From Bacillota bacterium (GTDB taxonomy: Bacteria > Bacillota > Limnochordia > Darwinibacteriales > Darwinibacteriaceae): 64,000 bases of DNA. This document shows positions 3,040-40,083 of the stretch, piece after piece. How positions within the stretch are numbered: position 1 is the first letter of the stretch; each line of letters opens with the position of its first letter. A model generated the notes under the pieces. That model was not told the origin of the DNA, ran no database searches, and saw only the letters and a list, made by a program, of their open reading frames with translations. Position numbers and translations under genes: made by a program. The stretch is from contig JASGVS010000010.1 of assembly GCA_030054835.1 (NCBI GenBank), forward strand, positions 10,276-74,275, written 5' to 3'.

Positions 3040-3897
3040 TCAGCCTTGACTCCGGTAAAGCATCCGCCACACGCCCAGAGTAAAGAAAACAAGGGCAGTA
3101 ACCACAAGGATGAGTAAACTCACCCAGGGACTGACCGCGCTGTCGCCGAACCTGAAAACCACACCCATCATGGTCTGAAACTCCTCGAGCACAGCGCCGG
3201 GAGCCCCAGCAAAGGCCAGATTCATGGGCACCTCCATCAAAACCTGCCGGAACAAACATGCGGCATGGGAGATGGGAAAGAGTTTGATCGCAGTTTGGAC
3301 GGACGGGGGCAGAACCCCTAGGGGAACGTAAATACCCATCAAAAAGCCGATCAGAGTCCCCACCACAGTACTAGCCACACCAAAGGCGTTCTGGGTTTTG
3401 AAAAACGAGACTAGGAAAAAGAGTATGGCTCCGCTCACAGTGGTGGAGAGGAGAATAAGGCCAAGGACCTTGACAAGGCCTGCAATTGGCAGGATGCTGC
3501 CGCCGTTAGCAACGATGTAAAGTTCAGTTAGAAGCAGAGCAACCAAGCCCATAACCACTCCCACCGTGAGGGTAGAAAGGAGGTAACCTCCCACGATGGT
3601 GCTGCGTTTGATGGGAGACGTCTGGAAGTCCTGGGCAATACCCCTGGCCCGGTCCTCCACCACCACACCGACGGCACCCATGGTTGTGGTGACTGCGGTT
3701 ACGGCCAAAAGACCCGCCATAATCCAGCTGTCCATAAGGAACCTGGCCGCCGGCACTCCTTCCATGTCTGCCATTACCGTATCACCAAGGAAAAGGACAT
3801 AGAGACCAATAATGATAAACACGGCTAGAAGGGAGAAAAAGACAGAGGCCCGATCTCTGAAAAAGAGCTTCAGATTGCGGAGAGCGAAGGTAATCAT
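3040..3897 (-). CDS. ABC-2 family transporter permease
   Basis: 285 aa with six hydrophobic segments; translationally coupled (4-nt overlap) to the upstream ATPase; DrrB-like architecture. Confidence 0.75.
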   Translation of the reverse strand: MITFALRNLKLFFRDRASVFFSLLAVFIIIGLYVLFLGDTVMADMEGVPAARFLMDSWIMAGLLAVTAVTTTMGAVGVVVEDRARGIAQDFQTSPIKRSTIVGGYLLSTLTVGVVMGLVALLLTELYIVANGGSILPIAGLVKVLGLILLSTTVSGAILFFLVSFFKTQNAFGVASTVVGTLIGFLMGIYVPLGVLPPSVQTAIKLFPISHAACLFRQVLMEVPMNLAFAGAPGAVLEEFQTMMGVVFRFGDSAVSPWVSLLILVVTALVFFTLGVWRMLYRSQG

Positions 3898-4811
3898 GGG
3901 CGGATCTCCTTTCCTGTGATGCCGATGAAGGCATCGTCCATAGTACCCTGGATTACTTCAAAGCCGGAAATATGGTCCCGCACCCTGTCGATTATGGGCA
4001 GGGCAGCGAAGGTAGAAGGAATGTCAATGGCTACCACATCTGCCTGTTCCCTAAAGCTTAAAGACATCTCCATGAGAAGTCCACGCAGCGTTTTCAGATC
4101 GTCTGTCCAGAGCCGCAGCTGATCCCGAGCGTATTCTTCCTTCAGCTGGGCAGGGGTACCCTTCGCTGCGATCTCCCCATGGTCGATCACGATCACATAG
4201 TCCGCACCTGCCGCCTCTTCCATGTAATGGGTGGTGAGAAAGACGGTCATCTCGTTTTCCCGCTGCAGGGCATGGATTCTATCCCACACATTACGGCGGG
4301 TTTGGGCGTCAAGACCGGTGGTGGGCTCATCCAAAAAGAGAATCTTGGGCCTATTCACAAGTGCCCGGGCCAGATCTGCCCGGCGCCGCTGGCCGCCCGA
4401 AAGCTGGCCGTAGGGACGGTTGAGAAACTCGGTTACCTCTGCCTCTTCTGCTGCCCGCTGGACTGCCTTCTCCAGGACTTGACCCTTTAGGCCGTAGAAA
4501 CTGCCCCGGGTCAAAAGATTCTCCTTCACGGTCAAAAGATCGTCAAGGTAGTTACCCTGAAAGACAACGCCGATGGAGGAGCGGATTTGACCATCCTCCC
4601 TACCCAGTTCATGGCCGTTGATTCTAGCACTGCCCCGGTCCGCTTTGAGGGCGGTGGAGAGAATACCGATGGTAGTAGTCTTACCCGCACCATTGGGCCC
4701 CAAAAAAGCAAAGAACTTGCCCTTCTCCACGTAAAAGTCAATACCCCGCACCGCCTCAATCTGGCCGTAGGATTTCCTCAACCCCTGTACTTCAATAGCT
4801 TTCTCCATCAC
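3894..4811 (-). CDS. ABC transporter ATP-binding protein (DrrA-like)
   Basis: Walker A GPNGAGKTTT, ABC signature LSGGQRRR, Walker B ILFLDEPTTGLD. Confidence 0.85.
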   Translation of the reverse strand: MMEKAIEVQGLRKSYGQIEAVRGIDFYVEKGKFFAFLGPNGAGKTTTIGILSTALKADRGSARINGHELGREDGQIRSSIGVVFQGNYLDDLLTVKENLLTRGSFYGLKGQVLEKAVQRAAEEAEVTEFLNRPYGQLSGGQRRRADLARALVNRPKILFLDEPTTGLDAQTRRNVWDRIHALQRENEMTVFLTTHYMEEAAGADYVIVIDHGEIAAKGTPAQLKEEYARDQLRLWTDDLKTLRGLLMEMSLSFREQADVVAIDIPSTFAALPIIDRVRDHISGFEVIQGTMDDAFIGITGKEIRP

Positions 4812-4939
4812 GAAACCGCCTTTGTCTTCGGCTCCCCCCTATAGACGTACCCAGTTTAGCCGTTTGGATTAGGGAACCGAATGGATTGTCTCTGAGTATT
4901 TCAGGCGCAGTCTCCCTTTTCCTTCCTCCCAAAGTGAAA

Positions 4940-4967
4940 CTCTCCCGGTCTGGTTTGCCCGGGAGAG
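4940..4967 (-). terminator. stem-loop downstream of the second dynamin gene (9-bp perfect inverted repeat CTCTCCCGG/CCGGGAGAG); the U-tract is weak
   Basis: Inverted repeat read directly; T-rich tract only partial on the minus strand. Confidence 0.35.
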
Positions 4968-5005: not shown

Positions 5006-7573
5006 TCACGCTCTGGACCACTGCACCTGCAGCGACTCCTTCGCTTCTCCTAGACTGCGAAGTTGTGCCTGACGCCGTTTGAGCTCATTTGCAATACTTC
5101 TTGCTTCCTGAATGTAACGCTCCACTTCCCGTTTGTGGCGTTGGTGTTCCGCAATAAGTTCACGTACCTGGCTGTCATAGTTTTGGACATAGTGGGCAAT
5201 GTGTCTAAGAACTGCCTCACCCAGCTGTTCTTGCTGCTGATCGATCATCTTCTCCACTTCTGGCATAACCTCGTCATAGATAGCACGGTCTATGTGTTCC
5301 CAAATATGTTGTTGAACCTCTCGACGGACTTGCTCCAGGCTTGGGCCGAAGAAACGACCGAGAAATGAGCCGATTACTCCTCCCAAAATGGTCCCTATTC
5401 CAGGCAGAATGGCTGAACCGACCACTGCTCCGCCGATCACTCCCCACCCAGCTGTTGACTCCGAGGCCGTAAGTGCCGAGTCAATTTCTTCCAAAGCAGG
5501 TTGCAACAATGATGCTCCAAACGCTACATTCAGTGAAGATTTAACCCGTACTTCAATCTGTGCGAGTCTCTTGAGAGAGTACTGCCGTTCAAAGCGTTCC
5601 TCGAAGTTGTGGAAAGCCTGGGGTAAAATCGCGTTTAATTTCTTTTCCACTTCCTTTGTGGCGTCAGCGAGCTCACGCTCAACTGCCCTACGAAAACTGT
5701 TCATCATCCTACGCAACGTATCTTCACAGATAGTTTTTAACTCATCAAATGACGTCGCCTGCGCGAGCTCTTGCGAGATATCGTTCTTATATGCAGTTGC
5801 CAACGCACTGAGGCGCGAGTAGAAGATCTGCAGATACGCCTCCCTATCAAACCTTTCTGCGATGTAACGAAGCACGGGAGTTTTCTCGTTTTCCACAAAC
5901 GCGTTAATATCTGGGATTGTATACGCATTAAGTTCTTGCAGGCGCGCGTAAAAAGTTTGCTCCATATTAGACGCCTGCTTGGATAAGAGCTCCATTAGGC
6001 TGTGTTCCACTTTGAGTAAGTGGCGAATCATTATCGCCTCTCTGTTATGTGTCATCGTATCGATAACCGAACCGATAACCGCAGAGAACTCTTTCCCGTA
6101 CTTGGACTTCGGCTCTCGCAGAGCCATCAAAGGGCTCAAAGCCAGAATTTCAGGGTTTGAGATTCCGGTCTGCGCTCGGATCTTGTCCCGAATAATGTCG
6201 ACTATCTCCTGTAGATCCTCCTCATCTTCTGCCATGTCAGCTTTAGTAACGGCGAAAAGAATGGCTCCACTGACCCCTTCCAAATGCTCCCGTACAAAAT
6301 GGAAATCATAGCTTGTACCAGCCTGATCTGCGGGGTAGAGAAACATGGCTGCATCGGCTATCCGGTCTATCACATCCACCGTAATCTGACTGTGTATCTC
6401 CTCAGCATTTAGACCCGGTGTGTCAATGATCGTCAGACCTCCACGGAGGTAGTTCGACGGATACTCTAGCCGCACTGACTCGATCAATCCGTCCAATACA
6501 TTCACTTGCTTGGCCCGTGGAGCGGCAGTGAACTGGGCGATGAGTGGGCCGATCGCCTGCTTCTGTTCCTGTGATGTAATCACAAAACCCCTCCTGCTTG
6601 TGGCGAGCTCACTCAAAGGCCGCACAACCAATCGGCCCACTTCTGGAGAGAAACCGATCCAATAGTAGCCAGGTTCCGATATTTTTACGGTTGAAGTTTC
6701 AGGGGGTTGCGGAACCTTTCGGATTTTTTTCGTGTATGGGCGGTAGAGTCCCAGCGAACCCAGCAGTCTGGTCAGCAGTCGTCCCCACCCTTTCCTCTGA
6801 TACCTATACGGATAACGGCTCCGGAGGTAATCCCAGTTACATTCGATCCGTACGTTGTAAATGCCTGGCTCAAAGAATACTGCTCTCCCATACTCCCCCG
6901 AAAGGAAAAGATCGTTGAGAACCACCCTCTTTTTCGACCTCACGTTCGCTATCTGGACAAAGGGTCGGTTCTCTCCTTCCATAAATAGCACATCATCCCC
7001 TGTTGCTGTCTGATTGGCAATACTGCTGTAAAGAAACTGCACCTCCCTGTCCGCTTCCCAAACGTCCACATTGCCGGAACATACGGTTCTTCCTTGTGTC
7101 TTTATGTCGTAACTGAAAGAACCCGGTGTTTTTATTGTTAAAGTAACACCGTAGATACCGGGTCCAACTTGCGTGAGGATAACGTGCCCGTTCAGGAACT
7201 CACCCTCTAACGTCAGCTCCCCGATTACTTCCGTAACAACCTCCTGACTGGACGGCAACCCCCGAATCAAAAGGGATAGGGTGGGTCTGTCACCATAGGA
7301 GATGAAAGTAGGACAGATAGTAGTAGGGTGCAGGCGGCTCGTTAAGAGGTCTTCACCAAGGATAGCATTGATCAGCGTGGATTTGCCGGTTGAGAACCCA
7401 CCTACCAGCGCCAAATGGACCTGGTCCGTTGCCAACTTCCGGTCAATCAACGCGAGCGAATCCTGCACTCGCTGGGACACATCGTGCGGAAGATCTAAAT
7501 AAGTGCATTCCCTAACAACTCGCCTAAGGTAGGTCCGATTGTCCTCAATTACCTTCCGCGGCTGCACTCTCAT
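5006..7573 (-). CDS. bacterial dynamin-like GTPase (paralog 2, 855 aa) with a roughly 270-aa insertion between switch I and the DxxG motif, and a glycine-rich C-terminal membrane paddle
   Basis: G1 GGFSTGKST; G2 HPTT; G3 IIDTPGL roughly 310 aa downstream; G4 TKAD; long coiled-coil stalk; GGAVVGSAILPGIGTILGGVIGSFLG hydrophobic Gly-rich segment. Confidence 0.8.
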   Translation of the reverse strand: MRVQPRKVIEDNRTYLRRVVRECTYLDLPHDVSQRVQDSLALIDRKLATDQVHLALVGGFSTGKSTLINAILGEDLLTSRLHPTTICPTFISYGDRPTLSLLIRGLPSSQEVVTEVIGELTLEGEFLNGHVILTQVGPGIYGVTLTIKTPGSFSYDIKTQGRTVCSGNVDVWEADREVQFLYSSIANQTATGDDVLFMEGENRPFVQIANVRSKKRVVLNDLFLSGEYGRAVFFEPGIYNVRIECNWDYLRSRYPYRYQRKGWGRLLTRLLGSLGLYRPYTKKIRKVPQPPETSTVKISEPGYYWIGFSPEVGRLVVRPLSELATSRRGFVITSQEQKQAIGPLIAQFTAAPRAKQVNVLDGLIESVRLEYPSNYLRGGLTIIDTPGLNAEEIHSQITVDVIDRIADAAMFLYPADQAGTSYDFHFVREHLEGVSGAILFAVTKADMAEDEEDLQEIVDIIRDKIRAQTGISNPEILALSPLMALREPKSKYGKEFSAVIGSVIDTMTHNREAIMIRHLLKVEHSLMELLSKQASNMEQTFYARLQELNAYTIPDINAFVENEKTPVLRYIAERFDREAYLQIFYSRLSALATAYKNDISQELAQATSFDELKTICEDTLRRMMNSFRRAVERELADATKEVEKKLNAILPQAFHNFEERFERQYSLKRLAQIEVRVKSSLNVAFGASLLQPALEEIDSALTASESTAGWGVIGGAVVGSAILPGIGTILGGVIGSFLGRFFGPSLEQVRREVQQHIWEHIDRAIYDEVMPEVEKMIDQQQEQLGEAVLRHIAHYVQNYDSQVRELIAEHQRHKREVERYIQEARSIANELKRRQAQLRSLGEAKESLQVQWSRA

Positions 7574-9521
7574 TCACCCCCTTCTCAAGCAGGAGTGCCA
7601 ACTTCTGTTTGGTAAGTGTCAGTTCTGCGAGGGACGCTTTATACATGTCAATTGCGCCATATTTGTCCCTTTCCAGTTCAGTCCGGGCGCTCTTCAACTG
7701 GCGCTCCAGATTTGACAGCATAGCTCGGATCCCGTCATTGACAACCATAGCAAGCTGCTCCATGTGCTCCATAGCGTTCTTCTTAATCTGGCGTTCAGCC
7801 TTGTCCGGCATTTCCCCAACCGCTTCTCTCAGCTGTTGCGCGATCTCTACCCGGAGTTCCTCCAGCGCACGGGGGCTCATTGTTCGCCACAGAGTGTACG
7901 CGACCGCCCCAGACGCCATTAGCCCGGTTATGGGGTTCAAAAGTCCGAGAGCCCAGAGAACCGCATTGGCCGCCGTTACTCCTCCCAACTGGAGAATGGC
8001 ACCCTTAAGACCGAACACGCCTCCGGTAAACACTCCGCCCACATCACCCAGCAAAAGAGAACCTCCCGCAGCCAAGAGACGTTCAAAGCCGCTACCCGCT
8101 GTTGCGAGGCTGCTTGAGGCAGATCTGAATTCCGGTGCCAATTTCAGTTTAAGCTCGTCAATTTCCTCTAAGACACCCTGTACATGGCTTTCTACTAGAC
8201 GTTGAATCTGCTCCCCCTCCGTCCGGAGGATCTCCCTAGCTTCGCTTTCCTGCCAATCACGGATTTCACGCTGGATCCAGTCCTCAAGATAGGCAGCAAC
8301 TGCCTCCCGGTACTCAGTTTGAGCAAAGACACTGCCTTCCAGCTCAAGTTCTCGGGCCAGGGTCGGTAGATTACCTGCGATTGAACGGCAGCGTCTGGAA
8401 AAGCTATTGTAGAGCCGCTCGCCAATATGGGCACCCGCCTGCCCTATTCGCATTACGATGTACTCTTTTTTCTCGGAAATGCTCACTCGGCTCTTCTCAA
8501 ACTGCTTTTCCAACTTCTGCAGATCCTCGAGTTTGGACCGTTCCAGTAGATTCAGTCTAATCTCTGTCAACTCCCCAAGCTCGTCGATATATGTGTCTAA
8601 CATCCCCTGTGCGGACTGCAATTTAACATATCCCCGATCTCTCACCAGGAATGTCTCCAGAGCCTTTTCCAAACTTGGAAAACGACTGTTGGCAAGGGAG
8701 ATCTCATCGCCATGTAACCTGCCGTTGAGGGCGTCCCGGGCAGAAATAATGAAGGTGCGATCAGGGTTACCGATTTTTTCCCGCACCCGTTCCCAGATAT
8801 CCAGTTCATCGTCCTCTGTAAGGTGGTCTGCGTAATTAACTGCATAGAAGATATGATCGTAGCCCCGACCAATCAATTCTTCCCGGACAAATTTCAGCTC
8901 TTGCAACGAAAAGAGCTGTAGGCACGACAACACCATAATGGCCGTATCGCACTCATTCAAGAACCTAACGGTAAGCTTTTGACGGGTTTCATCTTCCTCT
9001 AAACCAGGCGAATCCACAATCTCTACGCCATTCTTACAAAGGTCCAACGGATAGTAGAGTTCAACCCTTTCAACCGGGGTTTCGATCCGACTCGAATAGG
9101 AACCGTGCTTGTGGTCCTTTCTCCGAATCAGAAGGTACTCCCTCAGATTCTCAGGGGAGACCTCCTCGGGTTCATCCCTATCCTTAAAATAGACCAATGC
9201 CCTGGGCTGCTCTCCGTATTTGATCACAGTGATCACTGCAGTAGTGGGAGTCATCTTCGCGGGCAGCACTTTGTCACCCAAAAGTGCATTAATCAGAGTG
9301 GACTTTCCGCGCGAGAATCCGCCTACCACGATAACCCGAAACATCGACTCGGTAACTAAATGCCTCAAACGCGTAAGCTTGTCCTGGTACTCCTCACTCA
9401 CTCCCAAAACCTGAGAAATGTCGTTCACATCCGAGACGAGCTCCTGGAGTCGATCTCTAAGAACATTGAACTCTTCATAGGTGGTAGCTGTCCCAGTTTC
9501 GATTCTGCCCATTTCCTTCAC
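7545..9521 (-). CDS. bacterial dynamin-like GTPase (paralog 1, 658 aa)
   Basis: G1 GGFSRGKST; G2 TPTT; G3 DSPG; helical stalk; Gly-rich hydrophobic paddle GGVFGLKGAILQLGGVTAANAVLWALGLL; 29-nt overlap with the downstream dynamin gene. Confidence 0.8.
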   Translation of the reverse strand: MKEMGRIETGTATTYEEFNVLRDRLQELVSDVNDISQVLGVSEEYQDKLTRLRHLVTESMFRVIVVGGFSRGKSTLINALLGDKVLPAKMTPTTAVITVIKYGEQPRALVYFKDRDEPEEVSPENLREYLLIRRKDHKHGSYSSRIETPVERVELYYPLDLCKNGVEIVDSPGLEEDETRQKLTVRFLNECDTAIMVLSCLQLFSLQELKFVREELIGRGYDHIFYAVNYADHLTEDDELDIWERVREKIGNPDRTFIISARDALNGRLHGDEISLANSRFPSLEKALETFLVRDRGYVKLQSAQGMLDTYIDELGELTEIRLNLLERSKLEDLQKLEKQFEKSRVSISEKKEYIVMRIGQAGAHIGERLYNSFSRRCRSIAGNLPTLARELELEGSVFAQTEYREAVAAYLEDWIQREIRDWQESEAREILRTEGEQIQRLVESHVQGVLEEIDELKLKLAPEFRSASSSLATAGSGFERLLAAGGSLLLGDVGGVFTGGVFGLKGAILQLGGVTAANAVLWALGLLNPITGLMASGAVAYTLWRTMSPRALEELRVEIAQQLREAVGEMPDKAERQIKKNAMEHMEQLAMVVNDGIRAMLSNLERQLKSARTELERDKYGAIDMYKASLAELTLTKQKLALLLEKGVNESAAAEGN

Positions 9522-9522
9522 C

Positions 9523-10464
9523 TCACATTTTTTCGTTCGCCACTTGGCGACCGCAAGCTATGCAATAAAAGGAGCCTTCCTCGAACGGTTCTCCGCAGGT
9601 ACATTGTCCAACAAACGCTTGTGATGCCTTGCGTTTCTTATTGAGAATAGCATCATAGACACCCCGATCGATCCACTGCAGCAGATCACTGAAACGGACT
9701 ATAACCCAAGGGTGAGTGTTCCACATCTGCCCCACAAACCGATAGAACCGATTTACCGAATCGGATGTCACCATCCGCTGAAAATCATCCGCCTGACGAT
9801 GGATCTCCTCAAGGTTGAGCCGATCAAACCAATCTCTAGGTACACCGGCGAAGCGACAGAAAACTGCTTTTGCTGCATTCAGGTCCTGACAGGCAAGCAG
9901 ACCGGCCCTGTCTGCACTAAACTCTGATTTCCTAATCCAATCGTACAAAGCAACTTCAAACCCGGTCCCAACCAACGCTCCTAACCCCAGTGTTGCACTA
10001 CCCATTAGAGTTATTAAGCGAGGAAGGTAAATCCCAATTTGGTGATAGAGTATATGCTGACAGTGGATATGACCCAATTCATGGCCCAGTACAAACCTAA
10101 GTTCTTCTTGTGTTAAATGGCTCAACAGCTCTGTGGTTAAGGTAACGTGGGGATACTCAACACCGGCAGCAAAGGCGTTCAGAGAAAATTGCTGTTGTAC
10201 AAAGAGGTCCACATGCCAGGAAATACCCAACACAGACTTGGTTTCCTGAAACAGCTCGTACAACTCTGGAAACTGCCGGGGTGTGACACGGACTTTACTA
10301 GCCATACTCTCAAGAATGAGGAGCCGATCATACCCAACCTCATTGAACTTCCTGACTACAGGTGTTAGCCCGGGAACCCTCTCTAACGCCGTTCGGGCTT
10401 CCCGGTCCATGGGATGTACATACTCAGCAGGATCTAGGCCAGACAAGATAACTCTATCGTCCAT
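9523..10464 (-). CDS. M48-family-like Zn metallopeptidase with a C-terminal C4 zinc ribbon
   Basis: HELGH (HExxH) followed by the EFSADRAG third-ligand motif typical of M48/HtpX-like peptidases; C-terminal CTCGEPFEEGSFYCIACG; 1-nt gap to the dynamin gene. Confidence 0.7.
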   Translation of the reverse strand: MDDRVILSGLDPAEYVHPMDREARTALERVPGLTPVVRKFNEVGYDRLLILESMASKVRVTPRQFPELYELFQETKSVLGISWHVDLFVQQQFSLNAFAAGVEYPHVTLTTELLSHLTQEELRFVLGHELGHIHCQHILYHQIGIYLPRLITLMGSATLGLGALVGTGFEVALYDWIRKSEFSADRAGLLACQDLNAAKAVFCRFAGVPRDWFDRLNLEEIHRQADDFQRMVTSDSVNRFYRFVGQMWNTHPWVIVRFSDLLQWIDRGVYDAILNKKRKASQAFVGQCTCGEPFEEGSFYCIACGRQVANEKM

Positions 10465-10468
10465 GCCC

Positions 10469-10792
10469 TCAGTCCGTTTTCACAGGCATACGCTCTCCGC
10501 AATACTCGCAGAGCAGCCTTGTTTTACTGTTTGCCGTTCCACAGCTCTCGCATATGTTGTATTTGGCGGGGTCAGGCTTCTCCTCAACCACGATCTCTTG
10601 CTCAGTTTGAACTTTCACATCCCTTGGCTTAACTGTCACAGTCCGGACACGTCTGGTTCCCGTGCTGGGCAGACCATTCTCCCTCAGATACTCTTCTGTA
10701 AATGTTCCCACCACAGCTCCCACGGCCGATCCAATGGGACCGCCCAAGAAGCTGCCAAATGCCGCACCGAGCGCAGCTCCGATCACATTCAT
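10469..10792 (-). CDS. small membrane protein, 107 aa: N-terminal glycine-zipper helix plus a C-terminal zinc ribbon
   Basis: N-terminal segment IGAALGAAFGSFLGGPIGSAVGAVVG (GxxxG repeats), C-terminal CESCGTANSKTRLLCEYCG; AGGAGG RBS 7 nt upstream; 4-nt gap to the M48 gene. Confidence 0.6.
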   Translation of the reverse strand: MNVIGAALGAAFGSFLGGPIGSAVGAVVGTFTEEYLRENGLPSTGTRRVRTVTVKPRDVKVQTEQEIVVEEKPDPAKYNICESCGTANSKTRLLCEYCGERMPVKTD

Positions 10793-10815
10793 CTTTTGAC
10801 CTCCTAGCAGGGTCT

Positions 10816-10842
10816 ATTCTACGATTTTCTATCATTTTCTAA
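10816..10842 (-). promoter_or_regulatory. candidate promoter of the 4-gene operon (TTAGAA-15-TAGAAT, weak spacing)
   Basis: Read on the reverse complement just upstream of the AGGAGG RBS of the small protein. Confidence 0.25.
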
Positions 10843-10951
10843 ATATTTCGCCCAAACAAGCCCATTTCCTGCCACAAGCGAGTGATTCACATCACAAAGT
10901 AAATAAAAAAACCGCCCGCTTCAAGGGAAACGGACGGGAAGATTAATTTCT

Positions 10952-12838
10952 TTAGGCTGCTGCCCGCAGTGATTGGAGCAGGGCGTTTAGGGTGCTGGCG
11001 GCATCCCCTTCGATCAACGTGCAGTTTGGTGCATCGTACAAGGTATTGGGCACTCCCGCGTAGCCCGGTGAGCGGTCTAGGTTGAAGACCAAGACATGGC
11101 GAGCTCTCTCCACGTGCAGGATGGGCATGCCGTAAATGGGTGTCCCCGGATGGGTTATGGCTGCCGGGTTAACAACGTCGTTCGCCCCCACAACTACCAC
11201 CACATCTACCTGCTCAAACTGGTCATTGATCTGATCCATCTCATACATCAACTCGTAAGGCACATCCACCTCTGCCAAAAGCACGTTCATATGCCCCGGC
11301 ATGCGTCCTGCCACCGGATGGATGGCAATCTGCACCTCCTTTCCCGCACTCTGTAGAATATCAATCAAACGCTTCACCTGCATCTGGGCTTGGGCTAAGG
11401 CCATGCCGTAACCGGGTACAATAACCACACGCTGAGCCGCTTCCAGCAGCTCGGCCGGCTGCAGTCCAGCCTCTCCACCTGCTGCAGGTTCACCCTCGAG
11501 AGCGTTAAGGATCTTCTCCAAACTGTCCTTAGCATCACCGACGAGCAGATGGACATGCCCCATACCGTACAGGCTGTTATCCACACCGGCGTAGCCCGGC
11601 TTGGTATCGTAGTTGCACACCAAGACCTGTTTGGCCTGATCGGCCCGGATGATGGGCATACCGTAAATAGGTGTCCCCTCCAGCTCGATGGCGGCTAGAT
11701 TAACCACATCGTTAGCACCGACAATAATGGCCAGATCAGCTGTCTGAAGAAAATCATTGATCTGTTCCAAATCGTAGAGATGCTCATACCAAACATCAGC
11801 CTCGGCCAGCAGTACGTTCATATGCCCGGGCATCCGGCCAGCAACCGGATGGATGCCGAATTTCACTTCTTTACCCTGGGCCTGGAGCTTGTCGGACAGC
11901 TCCTTCACCAGCTGCTGCGCCTGGGCGAGAGCCATACCGTAGCCGGGAATTATGGCCACTGTCTCAGCCGCCTGCAAGCTCTCCTCCCACTGATGCTGTT
12001 TCTCCTCACTGATCAGAGCCATTGGCGCAGTTGTCTTCACCGCCGCAGTGGTCTTGCCAAGGAGAATCTGCCAGAGGCTGCGGTTCATGGCCCGGCACAT
12101 AATCTGAGTTAAGATCAACCCAGAAGCACCAACTACCGCTCCCACCACAACCAGCAGAGTATGGTGGAGGGACATGCCTGCAATCGCACCGGCCACACCT
12201 GAAAGGGAGTTGAGCAGGGAAATGGTAATGGGCATATCCGCTCCCCCGACCCGGATGGTAAACAGGATACCGAAGCCAAGGGATACAACTGCCATAAGCA
12301 GCCCATGCAGAACAGGAGAACCTATTCCCACACTTAGCAGAGCTAGGCTGACCAGCATCAGCCCAGTGGTCAGCCACAGGGATAGATTATGGTGGTGGAT
12401 ATGAAACGGTCTCTGGCTTAACTTACCGTGGAGTTTGCCCGCTGCAACCAAACTTCCGCTTAGGGTTATGCCACCCACAATAATGGCAAGTCCCGTTGTG
12501 AACCAAGTAAACACATTCATTTCCCCACCCTGGCCAATGACCACTAAGGCAACCAAGGCCGAGGCGCCGCCGCCCAGACCGTTAAGGAGGGCGACCATCT
12601 GGGGCATCTGAATCATGAGCACCTTCAAGGCGAGCCAGACGCCAATGGCAGAACCAAGAATCAGGCCAGCCCACAGGAGGGGCAGGGTTAAAATCCCCTC
12701 TCCCAACAAGGTCAGGAGCACAGCACCTAACATAGCTCCCGCCCCAAGGAGGTTACCTGCCACCGCCGTTTTAGGCGAGCTCATGAGCCGAATGCCGTAG
12801 ACAAACCCTGCGATACAGATCAGCTGAAGGATGAGCAT
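10952..12838 (-). CDS. pntB: NAD(P) transhydrogenase beta subunit with a tandemly duplicated dIII (NADP(H)-binding) domain, 628 aa
   Basis: N-terminal polytopic membrane domain followed by two consecutive copies of the dIII signature (PGYGMALAQAQ ... HPVAGRMPGHMNVLLAE ... GANDVVN ... GTPIYGMPI ... PGYAGV). Confidence 0.85.
   Translation of the reverse strand: MLILQLICIAGFVYGIRLMSSPKTAVAGNLLGAGAMLGAVLLTLLGEGILTLPLLWAGLILGSAIGVWLALKVLMIQMPQMVALLNGLGGGASALVALVVIGQGGEMNVFTWFTTGLAIIVGGITLSGSLVAAGKLHGKLSQRPFHIHHHNLSLWLTTGLMLVSLALLSVGIGSPVLHGLLMAVVSLGFGILFTIRVGGADMPITISLLNSLSGVAGAIAGMSLHHTLLVVVGAVVGASGLILTQIMCRAMNRSLWQILLGKTTAAVKTTAPMALISEEKQHQWEESLQAAETVAIIPGYGMALAQAQQLVKELSDKLQAQGKEVKFGIHPVAGRMPGHMNVLLAEADVWYEHLYDLEQINDFLQTADLAIIVGANDVVNLAAIELEGTPIYGMPIIRADQAKQVLVCNYDTKPGYAGVDNSLYGMGHVHLLVGDAKDSLEKILNALEGEPAAGGEAGLQPAELLEAAQRVVIVPGYGMALAQAQMQVKRLIDILQSAGKEVQIAIHPVAGRMPGHMNVLLAEVDVPYELMYEMDQINDQFEQVDVVVVVGANDVVNPAAITHPGTPIYGMPILHVERARHVLVFNLDRSPGYAGVPNTLYDAPNCTLIEGDAASTLNALLQSLRAAA
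10955..12031 (-). repeat. intragenic tandem duplication (two units of about 537 nt) encoding the two dIII domains of pntB
   Basis: Amino-acid segments 270-447 and 448-628 align along their length. The opposite-strand shadow ORFs 11096..11356 and 11780..12112 show the same HMPGH-containing peptide about 537 nt apart. Confidence 0.6.
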
Positions 12839-39821: not shown

Positions 39822-40083
39822 TGGAAAGACCTCCTAAAGCAAAAAAACTTTTCACCCAGGCGCGATGAAAAGTACTTTTGCGCAACTGGCTGGCATGCAC
39901 GTGCTGTGGTTAGCCCCTTTAGCTTTGCGTCCCAGGGTTTCCCCTGGTTTGCCAAATTTTTAATTGTAACCGCTCTCTTTAACAAGTAGTTTAGTATAGC
40001 ATACTTACCATTTTTTGCAAGCGTTGTCAAACGAAAAAATTAAATTTCGTCGATCCGTCTCAAATCCCTTTGCCAACGGGATT

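Follow-up and report, generated by a model that had tools for sequence, protein, structure and literature searches.

A four-gene cassette that places an M48 peptidase and a small glycine-zipper/zinc-ribbon protein beside a pair of bacterial dynamin-like GTPases

How bacterial dynamin-like proteins (DLPs) are switched and targeted is poorly understood, and what they do in membrane repair and phage resistance has only started to become clear; recent reports connect them with the protection of membranes and with resistance to phages (bioRxiv 10.1101/2022.05.11.491447; PMC12998192). The 64,000-nt stretch of Bacillota DNA considered here (the window) contains a minus-strand block in which two dynamins lie beside three candidate regulators: an M48 protease, a paddle-like zinc-ribbon anchor and an Ig-like module. 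Are these genes a functional unit, and if so, what might the additional parts do for the dynamin pair?

The operon and its four products

ORF calling resolves the block (10792-5006) into four tightly packed genes separated, in transcription order, by 4 nt, 1 nt and a 29-nt overlap (Table 1), exactly as the first-pass annotation had stated. Such spacing indicates translational coupling, and the four genes are probably co-transcribed. The single upstream promoter and ribosome-binding region proposed earlier is also recovered, i.e. one AGGAGG motif and one sigma-70-like promoter candidate, which is defined by its consensus match only and is the sole such site from pntB to the first cassette gene. 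As for the downstream hairpin, it is indeed present, beginning 39 nt past the last stop codon, but its role as a terminator is only plausible, since its 10-nt loop made a simple terminator scan miss it, its U-tract is weak and the z-score of its fold is just −1.24. Rfam models found no element in or beside the block, their only match in the window being a distant c-di-GMP riboswitch.

Table 1. Features of the cassette and its borders, numbered by position in the window
Feature	Position	Strand	Details	Basis
pnt terminator	10937-10912		upstream of cassette	
Promoter candidate, sigma-70-like	10816-10843	-	TTTAGA-16-TAGAAT, downstream of pnt terminator	9/12 consensus
Ribosome-binding site	10801-10806	-	AGGAGG, 8 nt before small-gene ATG	
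Small protein gene	10469-10792	-	107 aa	ORF
Small protein, N-terminal glycine-zipper hydrophobic hairpin	10697-10786	-	residues 3-32	
Small protein, variable charged linker		-	residues 33-78	
Small protein, C-terminal zinc ribbon	10499-10552	-	CxxC...CxxC, residues 81-98	
M48 peptidase gene	9523-10464	-	313 aa	ORF, Pfam
M48, HELGH	10069-10083	-	residues 128-132	active site
M48, Gly-rich hydrophobic helical hairpin	9934-10038	-	residues 143-177	
M48, RKSEFSADR		-	residues 178-186; third ligand E181	active site
M48, C-terminal C4 zinc ribbon	9553-9603	-	residues 288-304	
BDLP-like dynamin gene	7545-9521	-	658 aa, GTG start	ORF, Pfam, PDB match
658-aa dynamin, Gly-rich hydrophobic paddle	7896-8078	-	residues 482-542	
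Second dynamin-like GTPase gene	5006-7573	-	855 aa; start overlaps upstream gene by 29 nt	
855-aa GTPase, Ig-like (filamin/X25-like) beta-sandwich insertion	6560-7252	-	~230 aa, residues ~108-338	
855-aa dynamin, glycine-zipper paddle	5342-5458	-	residues 706-744	
Terminator-like hairpin	4940-4967	-	9-bp GC-rich stem, 10-nt loop, then UUUCACUUU	

The two larger products exceed the Pfam Dynamin_N cut-off of 27 bits, with 99.4 bits for the 658-aa and 66.8 bits for the 855-aa protein, and each contains a Gly-rich paddle segment, in agreement with the earlier description of two paddle-bearing dynamin-like proteins. Both keep G1 (GGFSxGKST), the switch-I Thr, DxPG and NxxD or TKxD, and these G motifs (GGFSRGKST/GGFSTGKST, PTT, DSPG/DTPG and NYAD/TKAD) are conserved in all cassette homologues. 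The 658-aa dynamin additionally matches the bacterial dynamin helical domain PF21808 (39.2 bits; cut-off 28.3) and, over almost its full length, Nostoc BDLP (2j68; E 3.9e-40; residues 36-619), while a helical stalk in the 855-aa protein is predicted only from the coverage of residues 40-842 by the PADLOC LeoBC model. Among PDB sequences, Cj-DLP1/2 (5owv) and IniA (E 6.5e-14 with the 658-aa protein) match both dynamins, as do the PADLOC LeoA and LeoBC models (E 1e-16 to 1e-20).

In the 855-aa protein, the Dynamin_N match falls in two stretches, and the Ig-like insertion sits between switch I (G2) and G3, splitting the GTPase domain. Only ~10 proteins among 1.84 billion representatives share this insertion, and none like it is known to us from the bacterial dynamins described so far. 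Such a position would be an unusual way of coupling a binding module to a GTPase, and the insertion could reveal what dynamin machines sense.

The 313-aa product reaches 69.8 bits with Pfam Peptidase_M48 (cut-off 20.3), and among its homologues H128, E129, H132, E181, D185 and R186 vary hardly or not at all. An AF2 model (pLDDT 88.7) places the Gly-rich segment at the tip of a helical hairpin, and the top 21 Foldseek matches of this model in the PDB are M48/M56 or related minimal metallopeptidases—including 3c37, BepA, BlaR1, HtpX, ZMPSTE24, Ste24 and selecase—all of them weak (best E 4.5e-3, TM 0.3-0.5) and similar in the core only. Judged by its sequence and model, the protein has the M48 catalytic fold and motifs that the first-pass annotation had ascribed to it, and four Cys at its C-terminus account for the zinc ribbon of its own. 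HtpX orthology was considered and rejected: the NCBIfam HtpX equivalog scores 44.7 bits where its cut-off requires 355, and covers the N-terminal half only, and a single hydrophobic hairpin stands in place of the four transmembrane helices expected of HtpX. With HtpX, Ste24 and BepA the peptidase shares the HExxH...ExxAD active site and the catalytic core fold, whereas it has a Gly-rich hairpin and a C-terminal C4 ribbon instead of their multi-pass membrane domain.

For the small protein, motif inspection recovers the anatomy claimed previously, i.e. a small protein with a GxxxG zipper and a second zinc ribbon. All four Cys of the C-terminal ribbon are present; Pfam Gly-zipper and Zn-ribbon models match below their cut-offs only. 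Over 32 aa, its N-terminus and the paddle in the 855-aa dynamin share 41% identity, a resemblance between low-complexity sequences, and an uncharged Gly-rich hydrophobic segment is present in all four cassette proteins.

Distribution and origin of the cassette

About 10 metagenomic lineages, unrelated to one another, carry the cassette set, each time with different flanking genes. Four-gene sets were found at the loci L004-6/L092, L087/88, L089, L090/L172-174, L091, L001-3 and L170/171, and the linkage survives rearrangement, since the gene order at L176/177 is small-DLP-DLP-M48. Such co-conservation across lineages shows that the arrangement is not due to chance. Two three-gene versions (L175 and L179/180) retain the small gene and have no adjacent M48, so the protease is facultative; the core can do without it, and its substrate may lie outside the cassette. 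The small gene, by comparison, is kept upstream of the dynamin pair in every lineage examined, meaning that the conservation of this ORF with dynamin pairs elsewhere, on which the earlier proposal depended, is found throughout. A search of 156 loci placed 11 of the 15 small-partner matches in cassette loci, and together these data support the small protein as a cassette-specific, dedicated partner.

For the protease, linkage depends on relatedness: dynamins lie near M48 relatives of at least 45% identity at 12 of 13 loci, versus 1 of 94 below 45%, and in an NJ tree the M48s of the cassette stand together in a clade without other members. This supports reading the cassette protease as a probable dedicated partner as well. 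A general M48-dynamin linkage across the M48 and zinc-ribbon family can be rejected, given one case among those 94 loci and one among the 80 best M48-relative loci kept when 185,579 species-representative genomes were scanned, where the one example is a different operon in Prevotella. M48-dynamin pairing as a general feature of Firmicutes, a possibility that the first-pass annotation had raised, therefore does not hold: the cassette is rare and, save for Prevotella, such pairing is absent from the best 80 loci. Separate M48-dynamin operons exist in this Prevotella MAG (three M48 genes and two DLPs) and at L161. The wider M48 family has no conserved neighbour, its commonest neighbour family occurring in 10 of 154 loci, and what its members do in general may be quality control unconnected with dynamins. 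That this M48-plus-zinc-ribbon family is not dynamin-adjacent in 93 of the 94 loci below 45% identity counts against the reading of proteolytic control favoured below.

In the window, the cassette is the lowest-GC 5.8-kb stretch (0.506 versus a mean of 0.532, sd 0.010), and GC3 is 0.49-0.57 in its genes versus 0.57-0.68 in the flanks; the lower GC content noted earlier by eye is thus real by calculation. Its surroundings there are housekeeping genes (aroQ/E/A, ABC-2 transporter, pntAB, DAP dehydrogenase) without defence genes or, as had been observed before, mobility genes. AroA from the window has its best named match, at 58%, in a 'Firmicutes bacterium', which places the DNA in an uncultured Bacillota lineage and no more closely. 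ABC-2 exporters adjoin the cassette both in the window and at L170. A comparison between the window and the other cassette loci, aimed at insertion boundaries, detected no flank synteny. Defence or toxin–antitoxin neighbours occur in about 4 of 11 lineages, namely CRISPR-Cas, WYL and UvrD at L087, ParE and HepT/MNT at L004, a HerA-like protein and a nuclease at L175, and an MTase, UvrD-RNaseT and PLD at L178; among 60 flanking ORFs, PADLOC returned mostly Cas1 models and little beyond Cas1, WYL and UvrD. Deletions or frameshifts affect the dynamin genes in several relatives. Taking the low GC, the non-syntenic flanks, the defence neighbours and the loss of dynamin genes together, the best reading is that of an accessory, horizontally acquired cassette. 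An origin from a phage or plasmid was rejected, as no phage match was obtained and plasmid matches stayed below 35% identity and lacked the cassette; PHROG profiles matched only low-complexity sequence or HExxH.

Kinship with described dynamin systems

Neither the literature nor PADLOC yielded a system of the same four-gene composition, and a literature search for dynamins with M48/HtpX metalloprotease or glycine-zipper/zinc-ribbon partners returned nothing relevant, so that the arrangement, as suspected at the outset, does not appear to be catalogued. Like the heterotypic pairs represented by Nostoc BDLP and Campylobacter Cj-DLP1/2, the cassette has two adjacent dynamin genes of the GTPase/stalk/paddle type; in B. 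subtilis DynA, by contrast, the pair is fused rather than encoded separately. Beyond what is known of dynamin pairs, the cassette adds the peptidase and the small protein, and its 855-aa partner has the ~230-aa insertion in its GTPase domain.

In mycobacteria, the iniBAC operon, in which a glycine-rich iniB precedes the dynamin-like iniA and iniC, is induced by envelope stress. Its layout is that of the three-gene core of the cassette, and IniA is among the PDB matches of both dynamins. However, iniBAC has neither an M48 peptidase nor an Ig-like insertion, and IniB is larger than the small protein and has no zinc ribbon; the likeness drawn here is one of layout.

The dynamins cannot be filed under Eleos/LeoABC, since they miss the NCBIfam LeoA/HP0731 threshold (NF041922; 38.1 and 25.2 bits versus 325). 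Of the DynA/LeoABC-type pair originally envisaged, the paddle-bearing, BDLP-like pair stands and the LeoA assignment does not. In addition, 4AUR, the solved LeoA structure, is missing from the PDB matches of both dynamins at E<=0.01, which do contain BDLP, Cj-DLP1/2 and IniA; the cassette dynamins are closer to BDLP than to LeoA. What they share with Eleos is a two-gene dynamin operon found in varied genomic contexts, some of them beside defence genes. Mutation of the P-loop in either Eleos protein abolished defence (bioRxiv 10.1101/2022.05.11.491447), and both P-loops are intact in the cassette dynamins. As described, Eleos includes no protease and no small partner (bioRxiv 10.1101/2022.05.11.491447).

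What the cassette might do

The reading we favour, tentatively and at somewhat under an even chance, is that the cassette encodes an accessory dynamin machine at the cytoplasmic face of the membrane, the assembly of which would be under proteolytic control. Its core would be a heterotypic pair of the 658-aa and 855-aa dynamins plus the small protein, whose glycine-zipper hairpin may share a leaflet with the paddle of the 855-aa dynamin and whose zinc ribbon, on a long flexible linker, may recruit or nucleate the pair. The M48 peptidase, presumably held at the membrane via its Gly-rich helical hairpin, would be a regulatory add-on with a substrate inside the cassette, the likeliest being the small protein's exposed linker and the alternative a dynamin, and this cut would toggle GTP-driven assembly on or off for the tethering, resealing or remodelling of damaged membrane. 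The likely trigger would be envelope damage by phage or membrane-active agents. Membrane association, binding partners, protease substrate and physiological role are what we infer from sequence, and the same holds for proteolytically triggered remodelling or abortive defence, the function suggested by the first-pass annotation.

A precedent for this kind of control comes from mitochondria, where the M48 protease OMA1 acts on the dynamin-like GTPase OPA1 (PMC2806285). There, too, an M48 metallopeptidase is tied to a membrane dynamin, in a stress-induced control of membrane remodelling to which M48 control of dynamin assembly in the cassette would be analogous. The coupling in the cassette is a genomic one, the cassette M48 has a zinc ribbon and lacks full transmembrane helices, and the parallel is one of functional analogy within M48.

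Other explanations read the same genes differently. That the protease and the small gene merely happen to lie beside a dynamin pair, with no functional unit, would fit the fact that most members of the M48 family are not dynamin-linked, but runs counter to the comparison across genomes—about 10 lineages share the set although their flanks are unrelated, its linkage outlasts the rearrangement at L176/177, its M48s form a clade of their own and the gene spacing indicates translational coupling—and must be considered very improbable. A membrane-repair kit with parallel activities deserves more weight, even if it is unlikely. Here, the dynamins would reseal or tether membranes and the M48 would independently degrade damaged or misfolded membrane proteins at these sites in the manner of HtpX, with no substrate in the cassette and with the small protein merely marking or anchoring the damage site. 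HtpX does provide the best NCBIfam partial matches of the peptidase, quality-control and sensor proteases (BepA, HtpX, BlaR1, Ste24) are its fold matches, the three-gene versions do without it, the wider family is mostly a stand-alone gene, and the exporters next to the cassette in the window and at L170 would suit this role. Yet the cassette M48s constitute an exclusive clade that has evolved together with the dynamins and retained a zinc ribbon, which exceeds what one would expect of a generic housekeeping protease; the HtpX equivalog score far below its cut-off and the lack of HtpX-type transmembrane helices argue in the same direction.

Anti-phage defence or abortive infection akin to Eleos is a further, rather improbable alternative, in which the dynamin pair would detect infection, with the Ig-like insertion as its sensor, and the M48 would either free the small protein as a pore effector or destroy it as an antitoxin. 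Glycine zippers occur in pore-forming proteins, and that of the small protein would suit such an effector. The patchy distribution, low GC and frequent gene loss also fit, as do the defence-type neighbours at L087, L004, L175 and L178 and the PADLOC LeoA/LeoBC matches of both dynamins. Moreover, a two-gene dynamin operon shields B. subtilis from jumbo phages (bioRxiv 10.1101/2022.05.11.491447). Against this stand the NCBIfam LeoA/HP0731 scores and the missing LeoA structure discussed above; furthermore, PADLOC gives no significant match for either the M48 or the small protein, no phage or plasmid copies of the cassette were found, most contexts, the window included, are not defence islands, and the small protein is kept without the protease in the three-gene versions.

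Returning to the favoured reading of a dynamin machine under proteolytic control, a more specific form of it would be a prokaryotic protease-gated dynamin switch, in which M48 cleaves the small anchor or the Ig-bearing dynamin upon membrane damage or phage attack and the Ig-like insertion serves as a sensor coupling a ligand to GTPase assembly; in this detail, the proposal is speculative and probably incorrect in part or whole, with perhaps one chance in a few of being right. If the protease does act on this machine, proteolytic control of dynamin-like GTPases by M48 enzymes would operate in bacteria too and not in mitochondria alone, and could be studied in a system of four genes. Should the switch itself prove true, bacteria would have their own equivalent of OMA1-OPA1 regulation, dynamin-based envelope defence would gain a new class, and the operons of Prevotella and L161 would point to a wider spread of its logic.

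A cassette conserved as a unit

The four packed minus-strand genes picked out by the first-pass annotation, encoding a small glycine-zipper/zinc-ribbon protein (107 aa), an M48 peptidase (313 aa) and two dynamin-like GTPases (658 and 855 aa), are a real finding, and their anatomy had been correctly described. They amount to a pair of bacterial dynamins served by two dedicated accessory proteins, and one of the GTPase domains carries an unusual Ig-like insertion, overlooked at first pass. The ORF listing returns the same spacings from the 107-aa to the 855-aa gene, namely 4 nt, 1 nt and a 29-nt overlap.

Loci for comparison (L-numbers) were fetched by homology to the cassette M48, comprising the best 80 from 185,579 species-representative genomes and 80 JGI metagenome loci, and individual proteins were also traced back to their source contigs. 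This four-gene set recurs, in identical order, in no fewer than eight further lineages (L170/171, L001-3, L090/L172-174, L089, L091, L004-6/L092 and L087/88). The closest intact relative, L170, shares 65% identity in the M48, 61% and 46% in the two dynamins and 50% in the small protein, and even retains the 29-nt overlap. At L176/177 the order is small protein, dynamin, dynamin, M48, meaning that all four components persist through rearrangement. L175 and L179/180 carry the small protein and both dynamins without the M48; thus, the small protein is an obligate partner, conserved with dynamin pairs as well as in the four-gene lineages, and the protease is a facultative add-on.

The expected conservation of an M48 and dynamin neighbourhood holds among close M48 relatives and is seldom seen beyond them: counting only loci with enough downstream sequence, some of them near-duplicates, dynamins are present at 12 of 13 loci whose M48 is at least 45% identical and at 1 of 94 below 45%. 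L094, the sole exception in the former group, encodes a truncated M48. Neighbour-joining places the cassette M48s in a clade of their own. The wider M48-plus-ribbon family is spread over bacteria and archaea, with no conserved neighbour found among the fetched loci. Overall, the cassette is rare and confined to uncultured organisms; in the window, the host is an uncultured Bacillota lineage whose AroA is at most 58% identical to any named match, a 'Firmicutes bacterium'.

Two distant M48 loci are M48-dynamin linkages independent of the cassette and differently built. A Prevotella sp. MAG (Bacteroidota, L044) has a larger operon of three tandem M48 genes and two dynamins of 714 and 637 aa, interspersed with unknowns of 548 aa (before the first dynamin), 171 aa (between the two) and 502 aa (after the second). 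At L161, a 464-aa M48 with a long N-terminal extension lies 7 nt ahead of a dynamin-like gene, of which only the start is on the contig.

Coordinates of the cassette, its signals and related features
Feature	Sequence	Position	Strand	Remark
107-aa protein gene	window	10469-10792	minus	ORF listing
313-aa protein gene	window	9523-10464	minus	ORF listing
658-aa protein gene	window	7545-9521	minus	ORF listing; GTG start
855-aa protein gene	window	5006-7573	minus	ORF listing
Terminator at end of pntB	window	10937-10912		strong
Promoter-like site	window	10843-10816		between pntB terminator and cassette
9-bp GC-rich hairpin	window	4967-4940		39 nt past last cassette stop codon, then UUUCACUUU
Untranslated stretch	window	4812-4939	minus	~130 nt, hairpin to GTG start of ABC ATPase gene
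ABC-2 type exporter genes	window	3040-4811	minus	directly adjoin cassette
pntB	window	10952-12838	minus	628 aa
c-di-GMP-I riboswitch aptamer	window	39878-39963	minus	RF01051, 70 bits
IS21-type transposase genes	L170	1273-3573		3 kb upstream of cassette
ABC-2 type exporter genes	L170	14731-16949		beside cassette
A7 frameshift site	L090	~11940-11950		658-aa-type dynamin gene
Truncated M48 gene	L094	1-489		
M48-dynamin operon	L044	9196-19547		
464-aa M48 gene	L161	953-2643		

The four proteins

The 313-aa protein is assigned by sequence to M48 rather than HtpX, with a Pfam Peptidase_M48 match of 69.8 bits (cut-off 20.3), an active site of HELGH (residues 128-132) and RKSEFSADR (178-186), and, as had been claimed, a four-Cys ribbon of its own, which is C-terminal and conserved among homologues. 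The metal ligands and the Asp-Arg vary little or not at all across 35 homologues, whose alignment yielded a confident AlphaFold model (pLDDT 88.7). The PDB structures most similar to it all belong to M48/M56 or related minimal metallopeptidases (3c37, BepA, BlaR1, HtpX, ZMPSTE24/Ste24, selecase), alike in the core only (best E-value 4.5e-3, TM 0.3-0.5). HtpX orthology was rejected at 44.7 bits against a cut-off of 355. The protein lacks a multi-pass membrane domain, and hydrophobicity is limited to a Gly-rich segment (residues 143-177), which the model places at the tip of a long helical hairpin.

Both GTPases retain G1-G4 and the Gly-rich paddle, the hydrophobic membrane segment of dynamins, and are classed as members of the bacterial dynamin-like family, in line with the earlier reading. 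The 658-aa protein is a typical BDLP-like dynamin (Dynamin_N 99.4 bits, bacterial dynamin helical domain 39.2 bits), with residues 36-619 aligning to Nostoc BDLP (2j68, E 3.9e-40). The 855-aa protein is more divergent, its Dynamin_N match being split in two by an insertion of ~230 residues (~108-338) after switch I and before the G3 motif. Modelled from just six sequences, the insertion is all-beta (confident model, pLDDT 83). Of 1.84 billion representative proteins searched with its profile, only ~10 matched in one long stretch, and all seven of these scanned against Pfam contain Dynamin_N; the remaining matches were filamin-type repeats in giant proteins, covering the first module only. To our knowledge, no described bacterial dynamin has a binding-type module grafted into its GTPase domain.

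The small protein has the predicted architecture. Its glycine-zipper segment spans 30 uncharged residues around a central GGP, and a charged linker, variable in length and poorly conserved, connects it to a second zinc ribbon (CxxC...CxxC). Over 32 residues, the N-terminus of the protein and the paddle of the 855-aa dynamin are 41% identical, a resemblance that is suggestive only because the match is of low complexity. An upstream ORF with a C-terminal ribbon occurs at 15 of 156 loci, 11 of which are cassette loci.

Possible function and known relatives

Functional motifs are intact in all four proteins, which are inherited together, and each contains an uncharged, Gly-rich stretch of the type that serves BDLP-type dynamins as their lipid-inserting paddle. 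We tentatively favour a serial, protease-gated model, in which all four would sit on the cytoplasmic leaflet. The small protein might co-insert with or nucleate the dynamin pair while presenting its zinc ribbon on a flexible tether, and the M48 would cut a cassette-internal substrate, most obviously the small protein's linker, which is exposed and variable, thereby gating GTP-driven assembly. The Ig-like insertion would be a candidate sensor or docking site, and the trigger could be phage or other envelope damage, both of which have been tied to bacterial dynamins (bioRxiv 10.1101/2022.05.11.491447; PMC12998192). A mitochondrial precedent for an M48 protease acting on a dynamin-like GTPase is OMA1, which processes OPA1 under stress (PMC2806285). 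That the genes instead encode a parallel repair kit, with the M48 as an HtpX-like quality-control enzyme, seems unlikely, and an abortive-infection system akin to Eleos (the two-gene LeoABC anti-phage system), with the small protein as effector, is rather improbable. Mere chance adjacency, given the joint inheritance of the four proteins, hardly merits consideration. The protease-dynamin coupling of the gated model is directly testable and would interest the dynamin, membrane-repair and phage-defence fields.

The arrangement is indeed uncatalogued as far as our searches reach: PADLOC gave no significant model match for the M48 or the small protein, and the literature searches turned up no dynamin operon described as having an M48 peptidase or a partner of zinc-ribbon/glycine-zipper type. 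Membership of the dynamin pair in the LeoA/Eleos family was rejected by NCBIfam thresholds (38 and 25 bits versus 325). The three-gene core of small protein and two dynamins calls to mind the mycobacterial iniBAC operon, which is induced by envelope stress and in which the gene for the Gly-rich IniB precedes those for two dynamins. IniA also appeared in the PDB matches.

Signs of exchange and decay, and genomic context

The differing flanks of the cassette, its varied neighbours, its damaged dynamin genes and its low GC together fit an accessory module that is exchanged horizontally. Flanking genes differ in every lineage and are syntenic with the window in none. Among the neighbours are Cas1/Cas2/Cas10, a WYL regulator and UvrD (L087), ParE and HepT/MNT (L004), a HerA-like ATPase and nuclease (L175), and a methyltransferase, UvrD-RNaseT, MazG and PLD (L178); the surroundings are ordinary genes in the window, L170, L172, L001, L089 and L179. 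No copy was found on known phages or plasmids. Mobility genes were seen near one copy alone, that of L170, and are of IS21 type (IstB and a Mu-transposase-like gene).

Damage to the dynamin genes is frequent across relatives. L001, L002 and L003, contigs >99.5% identical with the same M48 gene, carry three different nested deletions of 0.3-2.2 kb that take out parts of both dynamin genes, so the cassette is structurally variable or decaying within one population. In L090, a frameshift located precisely at an A7 tract (A_AAA_AAT) splits the 658-aa-type gene, and the site is identical in four assemblies of one lineage (L090, L172-174). A -1 shift restores the full-length protein; the cause could be slippage, either transcriptional or ribosomal, or phase variation, or the gene may be a recent pseudogene. 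L094, the closest M48 relative (75% identity), ends early without its zinc ribbon and has chemotaxis and diguanylate cyclase genes, with no dynamin gene within 7 kb downstream; it looks like the remnant of a lost cassette.

The lower GC noted by eye is borne out in the windowed calculation: at 0.506 against a window mean of 0.532 (sd 0.010), the cassette is the lowest-GC 5.8-kb stretch of the 64 kb, with GC3 of 0.49-0.57 versus 0.57-0.68 in flanking genes. Its flanks are housekeeping (aroQ, aroE, aroA, ABC-2 exporter, pntB/A, DAP dehydrogenase), and, as first stated, no mobility genes lie beside it in the window. Shared upstream signals were likewise recovered, as a single promoter-like site and an AGGAGG 8 nt 5′ of the first ATG; the proposed downstream hairpin is present but weak, a plausible terminator with a fold z-score of -1.24. 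The untranslated stretch beyond it matches no Rfam family.

ABC-2 type exporter genes also lie beside the cassette in L170, there with a histidine kinase/response regulator pair; this adjacency may reflect a link to membrane-active peptide resistance, or coincidence. On the other side, pntB is longer than the usual ~460 aa and apparently contains its C-terminal NADP(H)-binding domain twice in tandem, with two copies of the motif PGYGMALAQAQ...HPVAGRMPGHMNVLLAE and a Pfam PNTB match in two stretches. The sole Rfam match within the window is the c-di-GMP-I riboswitch aptamer.
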